64,000 nt of DNA from Candidatus Dadabacteria bacterium (lineage in GTDB: Bacteria; Desulfobacterota_D; UBA1144; Nemesobacterales; Nemesobacteraceae). Within the stretch, counting starts at the first letter, position 1; every line of letters starts with the position of its first letter. Of this stretch, positions 3,342 through 44,114 are shown in pieces. A program made the translations under genes and the position numbers. The DNA lies in contig JAJECI010000009.1 of the NCBI GenBank assembly GCA_022822065.1, forward strand, positions 1,340-65,339, read 5' to 3'. The notes below the pieces were generated by a model, which saw only the letters and a list, made by a program, of their open reading frames with translations, was not told the origin of the DNA and searched no databases.

Positions 3342-4629
3342 ATCTCAATGACTCCACGGGGTTTTCTCTCGAAGCCCTGTAAGACGGGTAGAGAGTCGCA
3401 AGAAAGCATATAAGCAGGCTTGATACCGCCACAACGAGAAAATAAACCGGCTCTATCCTAACAGGAAATTCGGAAATAGGGTACACATTATCATCAAACG
3501 GAATCGCTTCCTTTATAAAATTGCTGGTCTCAAGAAAGCGACAGATAAGGTATCCGAAGAGCGTGCCGAGAAGTGTCCCGACGGTACCTATTATCATTCC
3601 GTCGTAAACGAATATTTTTCTGATGCCGCTTTTGCGAGCTCCCATGGATATGAGCACGGCTATGTCCCTTTTTTTCTCCATAACGAGCATTGTAAGCGTG
3701 CTGACTATATTCAAGGCGGCGACAAGAACTATAAACCCGAGGAATATTCCTATCGCCATTCTCTCAAGGCGAAGCGCCCTGAAAAGGCTTCTGTTCGAGT
3801 CCTCCCAGTTCTTCGCGTAGAAAGGATAGCCAAGAGTTTCTGTGATCCTCTTCCCCGTTTCGCGCGCCCGGTATATGTCATCCACCCTGACCTCTATGCC
3901 CGTTATCCTGCTTTGGGTTTCGAAGAAATTCATGGCATCCTCAAGCGACACGTAGGCGGTAGACGAATCGTATTCAATCATGCCGTAATCAAAAACTCCT
4001 ATCACGCCGAATTTCCTTATCTTGGCCGTCGGGCCGAAAGGACCGATCTTTCCGTAAGGAGAAACCAGATTGAGGGTATCCCCGATTCCTGCGCCGATCA
4101 GATTCGAGAGTTCCCTGCCTATGATGATCGGAGGGTGGCCGGAAGCAGTTTCGTGCAGAAGTCCCGAAATAATCCGGGCGCCTTCATCGGAGAGAGTGTC
4201 ACGGTTCTTGCCCGTCTCCGGCAAGCTGCCTTTTCCCACAGCTTCGGCCACGGCGGCAACCGAGGCTGAATTGTTCGGGTCTATCCCCCTTACGACGGAA
4301 CCTGAGACAGCATATTCCGTGACAAGCATTCCTTGGTTGTAAATAAATGGACTTGTCGAGGTTACGCCCGGAATCTGCGCAAGTTTCCCCTCCACCTCCG
4401 CGAAATCTCCGAAATCTCCTTCGTAGCTCATTATGACTACGTGGGAACTCGCGCCGATTATCTTGTCCCTGAGTTCATCCTCAAACCCCTTCATCACCGA
4501 GAGCACCACGTCAAGCGAAGCCACTCCCAGGAAAACGCCCAGAATGGAGATAAGGCCGATCAGGGAGAGAAAACCACGCCCAGTTCCCGATTTCAGGTAC
4601 CTAAGGGAGATTAACGATTCGTAGCTCAT
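3334..4629 (-). CDS. Lipoprotein-releasing system permease (LolC/LolE, FtsX/MacB-type)
   Basis: 431 aa with an N-terminal TM helix, a large periplasmic domain and a C-terminal three-TM FtsX module. It is coupled to lolD. Confidence 0.75.
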   Translation of the reverse strand: MSYESLISLRYLKSGTGRGFLSLIGLISILGVFLGVASLDVVLSVMKGFEDELRDKIIGASSHVVIMSYEGDFGDFAEVEGKLAQIPGVTSTSPFIYNQGMLVTEYAVSGSVVRGIDPNNSASVAAVAEAVGKGSLPETGKNRDTLSDEGARIISGLLHETASGHPPIIIGRELSNLIGAGIGDTLNLVSPYGKIGPFGPTAKIRKFGVIGVFDYGMIEYDSSTAYVSLEDAMNFFETQSRITGIEVRVDDIYRARETGKRITETLGYPFYAKNWEDSNRSLFRALRLERMAIGIFLGFIVLVAALNIVSTLTMLVMEKKRDIAVLISMGARKSGIRKIFVYDGMIIGTVGTLLGTLFGYLICRFLETSNFIKEAIPFDDNVYPISEFPVRIEPVYFLVVAVSSLLICFLATLYPSYRASRENPVESLRYE

Positions 4630-4630
4630 A

Positions 4631-6091
4631 CTAAGGTCTGAGGTGAGGGAAGAAAATAACTTCTCTTATGGAAGAGGAGTTGGTAAGCAGCATCACAAGA
4701 CGGTCGATCCCTATACCGGCTCCGGCCGTGGGGGGCATTCCGTACTCAAGGGCCGACACGTAGTCATTATCCATTTCATGATATTCTTCCTCGCCCTTTT
4801 TCTTCATCTCGACCTGGTCCGTGAACCGTTTTTTCTGATCAATCGGGTCGTTAAGCTCAGAAAAAGCGTTGGCTATCTCCCTTCCGTAGATGTAAAGCTC
4901 GAATCTGTCAACCACTTCGGGATCATCGTCGTTTTTTCTGGCAAGCGGGGAGACATCAAGCGGGAAACCGTAAACAAAAGTCGGGTTAATTAGACTGTCT
5001 TCGAAAAGCGCCTCGAAAATCTCCGTGAGAGCTTTCCCCTTGATTCCGTTATGGTTTATTCCCATGGAATCGGCCTTTGCGAAAAGAAACTGGTCATCTT
5101 CTGTTATTTCGGAACCGAATTTCTCCCGCAGGGCCTCGTATATGTTAATTCTCTTCCAAGGTCTCTTGAAGTCTATCTTCTTGTCTTCGTACTCAACCGA
5201 CATGTCTCCGGCCGTGTTTTCCACCACGTAGCAGACAAGCTCCTCTATGAGATTCATAAGGTCTTCGTAGGTCGCGTAGGCCTGGTAGAACTCAATCATG
5301 GTGAATTCCGGGTTGTGCTTAGTGGAAACCCCTTCGTTTCTGAAAGTCCTTCCAAGTTCATAAACTCTTTCAAGTCCTCCGACGACAAGTCGCTTCAGGT
5401 AAAGTTCGGGAGCTATCCTCAGGTAAAGGTCCATGTCAAGGGCGTTGTGATGAGTAACAAAAGGTTTCGCGGTCGCACCTCCGGCAATCGGGTGAAGCAC
5501 CGGGGTCTCCACCTCCAGGAAATCCCTTTCGTCAAGAAACCTCCTGATGAGGTTTATCACCTTTGACCTTGTCTTGAAAATCTCCTTGGTTCTCTGGTTA
5601 GCAATGAGATCCAGATAACGCTGGCGGTATCTTAGCTCAACATCCTGGAGACCGTGCCATTTTTCAGGAAGCGGCCTCAGGGCCTTTGCGAGGAAAAAAA
5701 GTTCCCGGATCCTCACCGTAAGCTCCCCGGTCTTGGTTTTAAAAAGTTCTCCGCGTACGCCGGCGAAATCCCCTACGTCAAGCAGTTTGCGAAACAGCGT
5801 AAAGGTTTTCTCGTCAATGGAGTTTTTCTGTATAAACGCCTGAATCCGCCCCGTGCGGTCAGACAGATGAAAAAAAGCGCTTTTTCCGAAATCCCTCTTT
5901 GAAACAACTCTTCCGGCCAAGCTGAAGAGCTCTTCCATCTGTTCAAGTTCTTCAGGAGACTTCGAAGCGTGCAGAGAGGCCAGTTCTCCGGCGGTATGCT
6001 CCGGGGTAAAATCGTTTGCGTAAGGGTCAATGCCCATTGCCCTCAGCTCTTCGAGCTTCGATTTTCTTAGTTCAAACTGCTTATCTTCCAT
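4631..6091 (-). CDS. lysS: Lysine--tRNA ligase (class II)
   Basis: 486 aa with an N-terminal OB anticodon-binding region and class II core motifs ([35 protein letters not shown]). Confidence 0.92.
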
Positions 6092-42558: not shown

Positions 42559-42577
42559 CTAAAATCGGAACTATCCC

Positions 42578-42589
42578 AATAACTAGATA
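42578..42589. repeat. Left terminal inverted repeat AATAACTAGATA
   Basis: Exact inverted match to 44088-44099, preceded by TATCCC. Confidence 0.6.
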
Positions 42590-42900
42590 AACTCAAGACT
42601 GTGATTTCTTACATGGTGGGCGAAAGCCTATCTGTACTTTCGGTTCCGAGAACGCTTCCTTCTCTTTAATGTTGGAGCACCGCATCTCTCTTTTACCATA
42701 GTGTGAGTATAACTTAACATATGGCTCAGGGGAGAGATTAAATCCCTTTGCTGGTTTAAAATCTCCATCTTCCATTTTAGAAGTGGTCTATTGATCATTT
42801 CCGGGTTTCCTATTAGGTTAGAATGTGAGGATGAGGCAAGAAATGGTAGCTTCTTGCCTTCCCCTTAGCCTTTCATCATTACATCACATTGTCGTAGAAG

Positions 42901-43614
42901 TTAAGCTCCTCGTTTTGCCTTCTTCTTTATTAACTCAAGCCAGTCTGCAAAATCTTCATAACTGTTTTTACTCATTTTTTCGGGAAATTGTATTACAGCT
43001 TGTCCCTCATCCAAAGAACACAAATCTTGTCTTATCTCAGTCTTTCGTGTTTCAGTTGTATCAAACAGTGTCCTGTCGATAATTTCGTGCCCCGTGGTTT
43101 CGTTGCTTTCCTCTTCTTCGCCTTCGTTTTCGCCTTCAATGAGGTTTGCGAAAGAAATTGTTTCTTTGAATTTCTTGATAATGTCCTGTGCACTTGTTTT
43201 GCTTACCTCTTTTTCCGATGTCAGAAAATAGGTGATATTGGCGTCGGAAGGTAGACCGGCTTCACCCCACTTCTCCCACATCTCATCGAATATCCTAGGT
43301 TTGGTTGCGGCAGTTTTAATAAGTTCCTCACGTTCAGCGGAATCTTCTCTTTCATCTAGAATTATATTCCGTCCCAGCTTGGATATTTTAATGCTCCTGT
43401 CGTCTCCTTTACCCTCCACCTCCACTAACCCAAACGCACTTAATGCGGCTACAGTCCTGAAACCGCCACTGCTTTTTTCCTTATATCCCCAATGCTGTGC
43501 GGCTAATTTCGTATTGACAGTATTTGTACCTTCTTTGTTGTACAGTTGCCCCACCCTGCCTATGGCAACCTCTAATGATATAAAAGGATATTTAACAGCT
43601 TTTGCTCGAGCCAT
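42901..43614 (-). CDS. Hypothetical protein: putative winged-helix-like N-terminal domain, acidic linker and small C-terminal domain
   Basis: 237-aa ORF with a strong AGGAGG RBS 7 nt upstream of the ATG and a sigma70-like promoter. I recognised no catalytic motifs. It has an acidic low-complexity linker (EGENEGEEEESNE). Confidence 0.7.
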   Translation of the reverse strand: MARAKAVKYPFISLEVAIGRVGQLYNKEGTNTVNTKLAAQHWGYKEKSSGGFRTVAALSAFGLVEVEGKGDDRSIKISKLGRNIILDEREDSAEREELIKTAATKPRIFDEMWEKWGEAGLPSDANITYFLTSEKEVSKTSAQDIIKKFKETISFANLIEGENEGEEEESNETTGHEIIDRTLFDTTETRKTEIRQDLCSLDEGQAVIQFPEKMSKNSYEDFADWLELIKKKAKRGA

Positions 43615-43645
43615 TTTAAAACCTCCTGGCTTTTAAGATACTAGT

Positions 43646-43673
43646 AATATAATTATGGAATCCGGCGTGTCAA
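43646..43673 (-). promoter_or_regulatory. Sigma70-like promoter of the orphan ORF (TTGACA, 16-17 nt spacer, TATATT)
   Basis: The minus strand reads TTGACA (43673-43668), CGCCGGATTCCATAA(T), then TATATT (43651-46). AGGAGG and the ATG follow at 43614. Confidence 0.5.
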
Positions 43674-43676
43674 GGT

Positions 43677-43706
43677 AAATTGATAAAAATTGATAAAAAT
43701 TGATAA
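43677..43706. repeat. Three perfect tandem 10-bp repeats (AAATTGATAA x3) bracketed by direct GTCAAGGT copies
   Basis: Read directly: the repeats are at 43677-43686, 43687-43696 and 43697-43706. GTCAAGGT occurs at 43669-43676 and again at 43707-43714. The downstream copy overlaps the -35 box. Confidence 0.9.
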
Positions 43707-44009
43707 GTCAAGGTGACTAAAGAGATGCAAGGTGGCATCACCAAACCTCTCTTAATACATTGCCGTAGCGCATGCACGGAGTAAACCTGCGGCCTCCCGA
43801 GCCGGGCGACCAGCCTGCACATCTCCGGCCGGCAACGGGTATAACTGGTTTGTGGAAGGAGAGGGTCGTCTCTGGTTCTCATACGAAGAACAGCCTGGTT
43901 TTTATGGATGTACGGATTGCTGCGAGCTGGTTCACAGGAATACGACAACTGGCCGACCATACCACATCTCGTCCTCTCCAGACCTCTTGATTTCTACACC
44001 GACGCGGGG

Positions 44010-44087
44010 GATTGGTTTCTTCCGAGGAGCGTTATACGAGAGAGACTGTTTTCAACCATATAGCGGTCCTCGTCCCTGAAACCAATC
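44010..44087. other. Long imperfect hairpin (10 + 6 + 7 bp stacked helices, about 22-nt loop) abutting the right TIR
   Basis: GATTGGTTTC (44010-19) pairs with GAAACCAATC (44078-87). CGAGGA (44023-28) pairs with TCCTCG (44067-72). CGTTATA (44030-36) pairs with TATAGCG (44059-65, one G.U pair). Confidence 0.6.
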
Positions 44088-44099
44088 TATCTAGTTATT
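44088..44099. repeat. Right terminal inverted repeat TATCTAGTTATT
   Basis: Exact reverse complement of 42578-42589. It is followed by A and then TATCCC. Confidence 0.6.
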
Positions 44100-44114
44100 A
44101 TATCCCGACTGAAA

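Follow-up and report, generated by a model that had tools for sequence, protein, structure and literature searches.

A candidate transposase-less cassette in a Candidatus Dadabacteria genome carries a winged-helix gene from an IS1-linked family

A 64-kb stretch of DNA from a Candidatus Dadabacteria bacterium (contig JAJECI010000009.1, positions 1,340 to 65,339; referred to here as the window) carries a 1.52-kb insertion between two convergent genes, rsmE and a thioesterase gene. The insertion is real, and it bears the signature of a transposition event: terminal inverted repeats together with a target-site duplication. Only one convincing gene in the list of open reading frames (ORFs) lies inside it. 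This gene, called gene A, encodes a 237-aa protein, and no transposase was found in the insert. On balance, the element appears to be a single-copy cassette of the mobile insertion cassette type that was moved in trans by a putative transposase. The family of gene A is a conserved partner of a clade of IS1-family insertion sequences (ISs), where its product is an accessory or passenger protein.

A genuine insertion between rsmE and the thioesterase gene

The insert (42578-44099/44100 in window coordinates) lies inside a gap of 1,556 nt between the two convergent genes. It is organized as follows.

42572-42577, no strand: left copy of the direct repeat TATCCC, a putative target-site duplication, read from the sequence
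42578-42589, plus strand: left terminal inverted repeat AATAACTAGATA, exact; an imperfect extension reaches 42593
42590-42900, minus strand: non-coding flank after gene A, 311 nt, 41.5% GC (gene-like)
42835-42858: hairpin with an 8-bp stem, a possible terminator, ~40 nt past the gene A stop codon
42901-43614, minus strand: gene A, 237 aa, predicted winged-helix DNA-binding protein, solo copy (from the ORF, family search, AlphaFold2 and Foldseek)
43622-43627, minus strand: ribosome-binding site AGGAGG of gene A
43646-43651, minus strand: -10 element TATATT of gene A
43668-43673, minus strand: -35 element TTGACA of gene A
43677-43706, no strand: 10-bp repeat AAATTGATAA in three tandem copies, adjoining the -35 element on its upstream side
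43720-44087, no strand: GC-rich stretch, 53.5% GC, ending in a hairpin
44009-44088: imperfect 80-nt hairpin that abuts the right inverted repeat
44088-44099, minus strand: right terminal inverted repeat, TATCTAGTTATT in the plus-strand reading, the exact reverse complement of AATAACTAGATA
44100: single spacer nucleotide A
44101-44106, no strand: right copy of TATCCC, after the 1-nt spacer; aligns with the ancestral spacer of relatives

When the inverted repeat is extended imperfectly (AATAACTAGATARAYT), 14/16 positions match. There is also an outer imperfect direct repeat, ACTAAAATC at 42558-66 and ACTGAAATC at 44108-16, whose copies match at 8/9 positions. Because of this outer repeat, the exact boundary of the insert is uncertain by ~11 nt per side. 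An earlier note on the window had described the inverted repeats with their flanking TATCCC copies, a sole gene with no recombinase signature, a promoter decorated with repeats, and a GC-rich stretch closing in a hairpin. The letters at both ends, including the 1-nt spacer on the right, read exactly as described there, and the three promoter repeats and the hairpin are in place. The GC content of the stretch is clearly above that of the gene (53.5% vs 42%), and family, profile and fold searches agree that the gene lacks a recombinase signature.

Evidence for an insertion comes from related genomes. When species-representative genomes were scanned with RsmE, 27 syntenic loci emerged from Candidatus Dadabacteria / Thermodesulfobacteriota metagenome-assembled genomes, many of which are complete chromosomes of 1.5-2.4 Mb. 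The stop codons of rsmE and the thioesterase gene are 6 nt apart in four relatives (L006-L009) and ~50 nt apart in eleven others (L010, L012-L018, L020, L030, and L031). Thus, the 1,556-nt gap is a genuine insertion, because the junction is empty in 15 related genomes. Once the insert and one TATCCC are removed, the window aligns with the 50-nt spacers over their right half; TATCCCGACTGAAATCA against CTTCCGAC-GGAATCA is one example. The right-hand TATCCC therefore lies in host sequence. The homologous position in the relatives reads TTCCCG or TTCCGA.

Could the repeats be a coincidence? The 12-mer AATAACTAGATA/TATCTAGTTATT occurs only twice in the window, and an exact inverted repeat of at least 12 nt between two random 45-nt ends of the window arose in ~5e-5 of trials. 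The earlier note had argued that 12-mer inverted matches as such are expected by chance, but not at both gene ends with a matching external 6-mer, and had taken the combination as a transposition signature. Both points hold. The window has many exact 12-mer inverted pairs at distances of 0.3-5 kb (31 observed vs ~18 in shuffles), but this pair alone among the 31 has an adjacent direct repeat of at least 5 nt, and any inverted pair with such a repeat appeared in 5/100 shuffled windows. Furthermore, the arms of the inverted repeat coincide with the insertion boundaries that were defined independently from the empty sites of the relatives.

Gene A encodes a predicted winged-helix DNA binder

The 237-aa protein has no family match in Pfam, PHROGs, NCBIfam or PADLOC, and a profile search against the PDB gave only weak matches, to the winged helix of Csa3. 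Its relatives are nevertheless numerous. A word-indexed search found 55 of them, the closest being 72-74% identical, and 7,981 clusters at 50% identity came out of an exhaustive profile search, 3,032 of them with E <= 1e-30. Nearly all members of the family are 250-330 aa long, and none of the top matches is fused to a catalytic domain.

An AlphaFold2 model of the protein, based on the family alignment, is a confident one, with a predicted local distance difference test score of 88. From the N-terminus, residues 14-86 form a winged helix and residues 93-155 a helical domain; a disordered acidic linker (164-189) then leads to a C-terminal beta-hairpin plus helix (194-236). Foldseek matched the model only to winged-helix DNA binders (ScoC/MarR, ArsR, and TubR), with modest E-values of which the best was 0.01. 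A DDE, HUH, serine or tyrosine recombinase fold or motif was not found in the protein, and the profile searches that the earlier note had proposed for it likewise returned no recombinase. As modelled, the protein is a winged-helix DNA binder without a catalytic fold. The idea that it is a recombinase or a defence protein was rejected, given the empty Pfam, PHROGs, NCBIfam and PADLOC searches and a fold that is winged-helix only.

Gene A has a GC content of 42% (39% at third codon positions), vs 51% (~57%) for the host. It appears to be of foreign origin because of this deficit, which is shared by all solo homologs. In a promoter scan, its near-consensus promoter (TTGACA-16-TATATT) showed 11/12 matches. 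The expression signals of gene A are conserved in the homologous loci L001 and L003, both of which keep one copy of TATCAAT at the position of the repeats, and DNA similarity to the closest homologs is confined to the coding sequence and ~75 nt of promoter. The three AAATTGATAA repeats are probably an operator through which gene A would regulate its own expression.

One IS1-family clade has the gene A family as its conserved partner

A homolog that is 38% identical to the window protein (P0012) occurs on two contigs with different flanks (L072 and L073). The two contigs share a 2,193-bp segment with 99.95% identity in different contexts. This segment carries a 271-aa gene, divergent from gene A, whose product passes the Pfam model DDE_Tnp_IS1 (32.3 bits vs a cut-off of 24.1), and it is bounded by ~17-bp terminal repeats and 8-bp target duplications. 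The same divergent transposase arrangement accompanies a homolog that is 51% identical to the window protein (P0006).

A metagenome scan added 43 further gene A loci. Among the informative set of 39 non-redundant family loci with at least 1.1 kb of upstream sequence, 17 have a homolog of the IS1-family transposase (34-68% identical), always immediately upstream and divergent. The ends of the clade are conserved over 17 bp (GGTAGTGTCCTAATTTG), and perfect 8-bp duplications flank 9/10 complete elements. The clade elements are L072/73, L078, L080, L084, L088, L092, L094, L095, L110, and L121, and their layout is left inverted repeat, transposase, gene A, sometimes a further gene called gene B, and right inverted repeat. 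Complete elements range from 2.2 to 4.6 kb and therefore seem to hold variable extra cargo. In the L121 element, the extra cargo is a 74-aa ORF with an HNH motif and a 106-aa ORF.

Gene B encodes ~95 aa and directly follows gene A in one sub-clade of the IS-borne copies (L121, 3493-3774; L077, 1128-1445; L072, 5816-6094; and also L078, L084, L089, L110, and L116). Gene calling missed it in L072 and L073, Pfam and NCBIfam have no family for it, and it was never seen beside solo copies of gene A. Because the family partners a conventional IS1 DDE transposase in well-bounded elements, gene A is an IS accessory or passenger and not the mobility enzyme. A search of a literature library found no description of an IS1 subgroup with such accessory genes.

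Is the window element a member of this clade? Its gene A is present and intact. However, a profile built from twelve clade transposases had no match anywhere in the 64 kb, insert included, with tblastn also negative, and clade ends GGTAGTGTCCTAATTTG (GGnnnTG type) are absent from the window even when 4 mismatches are allowed. The ends of the window element match the clade repeat at 10/17 positions, which is equalled by five random internal sites. The duplication is 6 bp, or an imperfect 9-mer in an alternative parsing, vs 8 bp in the clade, and gene B is absent.

The GC-rich stretch, the hairpin and the flank after gene A

The GC-rich stretch occupies the position that the transposase has in the IS-borne relatives. 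The hairpin at its end (44009-44088) has a folding energy of -35.7 kcal/mol (z = -3.8), is single-copy, and has a 3' arm that ends exactly at the start of the right repeat. Among the RNA-structure tests on the insert, this hairpin alone was significant; the whole stretch folds no better than shuffled sequence on either strand (z = -1.3). Searches for tRNA and tmRNA genes in the stretch came back empty, as did Rfam, both at its gathering threshold and with E relaxed to 10. A known RNA gene was rejected on these grounds.

An open frame of 107 codons (43756-44076) lies inside the stretch. Neither Pfam nor NCBIfam matches it, and a search of 5.8 billion proteins returned no homolog. A pseudogene was rejected as well, since tblastx against all loci, the IS1-transposase profile, Pfam and NCBIfam were all negative. 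The stretch does not recur in the fetched loci, plasmids, phages or viral contigs, and the DNA of the insert as a whole has no match in plasmids, phages or viral contigs. Two candidates for the 311-nt flank were also rejected: a decayed gene B, because the gene B profile finds nothing there, and the tRNA-like module of the closest relatives of gene A (described below), which is not homologous.

Origin of the insertion

The favoured explanation is a mobile insertion cassette. It would have inserted once into the spacer of the convergent rsmE and thioesterase genes, duplicating TATCCC. The enzyme would most likely have been a DDE-type transposase that was supplied in trans and makes 6-bp duplications. 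The gene A protein probably represses its own promoter through the three 10-bp repeats, and the cassette is probably immobile now. The earlier note had offered two options, a non-autonomous cargo element mobilized in trans and a small element whose mobility function is of an undescribed type. The former fits best. The latter is not supported, given a winged-helix protein, a family partnered with an IS1 DDE transposase, and no RNA-family match.

Several results speak against the cassette. The earlier note looked to relatives for an empty junction with a single TATCCC; the empty junction is there in 15 of them, but the exact single TATCCC is in none. Nor did the further copies of the ends that it looked for turn up: the 12/16-mer ends were not found a second time in the window or in 1.1 Mb of related loci. 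At 6 bp the duplication is short, it has a 1-nt irregularity on the right, and the outer 9-mer repeat permits another parsing of the ends. A cassette does not account for the GC-rich stretch and the hairpin. No comparable ends surround eight solo copies of gene A (L001, L003, L005, L074, L120, L070, L075, and L122), so solo copies can arise without a terminal signature. Finally, since no cognate transposase was found, movement in trans is inferred.

A possible, though doubtful, alternative is that the insert is the relic of a once-autonomous IS with a transposase, gene A and possibly gene B. Later deletion or overwriting of the transposase gene would have spared the ends and gene A, with GC-rich filler between them. 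The layout is that of the IS-borne relatives, with the GC-rich stretch divergently upstream of gene A at the place of the transposase and the 311-nt flank matching gene B in position and length, and the 107-codon frame stops 9 nt short of the right repeat, like the transposase of L072. However, profile and translated searches show no trace of a transposase or gene B, and the 107-codon frame lacks homologs in any collection searched. The agreement of the ends with the family repeat is no better than that of random internal sites, and the duplication is 6 bp, not 8 bp. It is also unlikely that the gene came into a hotspot by illegitimate or flank-mediated recombination, which was probably the route of the other cargoes there, and that the repeats are coincidental. 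The junction does hold unrelated cargo without terminal repeats in other species, other solo copies of gene A lack such ends, no second copy of the ends was found, and both the 31 inverted pairs in the window and the 5% of shuffles that give a pair with a direct repeat leave room for coincidence. Against this, the arms sit at independently defined boundaries, ~20 nt from each flanking stop codon, and to the chance of ~5e-5 for a 12-mer match between two 45-nt ends the adjacent 6-mer adds ~1e-3 by simple calculation.

Target duplications of 9 bp are typical of IS1, and the outer repeat offers such a parsing. The element would then be an IS1-family derivative with diverged ends, GGAACTATCCCAATAACTAGATA (42567-42589) and a degenerate partner reaching 44106/7, flanked by a 9-bp duplication ACTRAAATC. 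The outer copies match at 8/9 positions, the left end begins with GG, the cargo gene comes from an IS1-linked family, and the spacer left on excision would be 6 nt, precisely the length found in the nearest relatives, L006-L009. This origin is nevertheless improbable. The outer parts of the two ends mismatch unless gapped, five random sites agree with the family repeat just as well as the ends do (10/17), and in the long-spacer relatives the 9-mers are two separate ancestral motifs (TCAAAATC and GGAATCA). The flanking genes, at 83-91% identity, give a bush-like phylogeny that is too shallow to decide the matter. Least probable is that gene A itself is the mobility factor. It could, for example, bind the ends or select the target and bring in a nuclease of the host or an unrelated one, with the GC-rich stretch and hairpin perhaps taking part, so that the window would hold a minimal autonomous unit of a kind not yet described. 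The small weight given to this proposal is drawn mainly from the residual uncertainty of the cassette and coincidental-repeat explanations.

Relation to known systems

Earlier work describes mobile insertion cassettes and their movement in trans, an example being MIC231, derived from IS231 in Bacillus cereus, and it also covers transporter ISs, which have passenger genes, and the relationship between IS1 and IS1595 (PMC3129680). Like MIC231, the window element has inverted-repeat ends, a short target duplication, a passenger gene, no transposase, and presumed movement in trans. Terminal inverted repeats are present at both ends (12/12 exact, 14/16 extended), the target duplication comes with empty sites in relatives, none with an exact single TATCCC, and the passenger gene stands without a transposase. 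Unlike mobile insertion cassettes, it is single-copy, and neither a cognate IS with the same ends nor further copies were found in the 64-kb window and 1.1 Mb of fetched loci. It also differs from them in that its passenger belongs to a gene family that normally resides in IS1-type elements. The comparison with that IS1-family clade is likewise mixed. The window element has a gene A homolog with its own promoter in the same orientation relative to the ends, but not the IS1 transposase, gene B, the GGTAGTGTCCTAATTTG ends or, in the main parsing, the 8-bp duplication.

Accessory DNA-binding regulators of the InsA type are encoded in IS1-family elements. Like InsA, the gene A product is a small protein of the helix-turn-helix type that occurs alongside an IS1-family transposase, and it could plausibly bind ends or act as a repressor. 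Unlike InsA, with which it has no known sequence or fold relationship, it is the product of a separate, divergent gene, is 240-330 aa long, and often stands alone in chromosomes.

Other known kinds of element were considered. A miniature inverted-repeat transposable element was rejected because the insert is 1.52 kb long and has an intact 237-aa gene equipped with a promoter. IS110 bridge RNA, IS200/IS605 omega RNA, a retron and a group II intron were rejected because there is no cognate protein and no Rfam match.

The window element would be a clean, datable cassette without a transposase in an accessory-gene hotspot of a reduced, symbiont-type genome, which is a modest result. It would be an unusual cassette in that no cognate IS is known and the passenger is itself IS-associated. 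Annotation resources may not yet record the link between a large unannotated family and a sharply defined IS1 clade that has a third conserved gene. The gene A family, together with 17-bp ends, 8-bp duplications, a size of 2.2-4.6 kb, and a third gene of ~95 aa, gives annotators a handle by which to recognize such elements. The finding poses the questions of how a winged-helix protein serves the IS1-type transposase that it accompanies, be it in end binding, repression or target choice, and why it so often persists by itself.

The junction as an accessory-gene hotspot

The same junction is occupied by other genes in other relatives.

L021, 6957-9152: 731-aa protein that, from its sequence alone, looks like a secreted protease
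L023 (6774-8671), L027 and L025: three-gene module, degraded in L032
L011, 6773-9678: NERD-helicase that matches DRT-type defence models
L025, 6747-12695: Cas1, besides the three-gene module

The products of the recurrent three-gene module are 156, 240 and 231 aa long, with no assigned function. The junction is a variable hotspot because relatives hold unrelated cargo there, and more specifically it is an accessory- and defence-gene hotspot in the Dadabacteria lineage. It resembles other such hotspots in that the cargo of one junction varies between species. It is unlike them in that the window cargo alone has inverted repeats and a duplication; no terminal repeats were found around the junction cargoes of the other species.

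Solo copies of gene A

About half of the family loci are solo copies of gene A in ordinary chromosomal contexts. Examples are the following.

L001 and L003: between scpA and scpB
L005: between pyrD and argJ
L074: between sucB and recG
L122: on a Tistrella megaplasmid, a distant protein match

In every case examined (including L001, L003, L005, L070, L074, and L120), solo gene A lies 5-21 GC points below its surroundings. With a GC content below that of the host locus, gene A has a foreign look in every solo setting.

There are hints that some solo copies may sit beside tRNA-type sequences. In the closest homologs, a tRNA-like gene directly follows the terminator hairpin (L001, 6847-6925; L003, 1257-1335; and also L002 and L004); the window has no counterpart of it. 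This gene scores 48-50 bits against an Rfam tRNA threshold of 29 and folds into a cloverleaf whose anticodon loop has 12 nt. The anticodon that ARAGORN reads in it has four bases (tgct or tact), and the two versions differ by G/A in the loop. In L120, a normal tRNA (4590-4675; Rfam score of 61.5 bits) lies ~330 nt upstream of a solo copy whose product (P0005) shows 57% identity.

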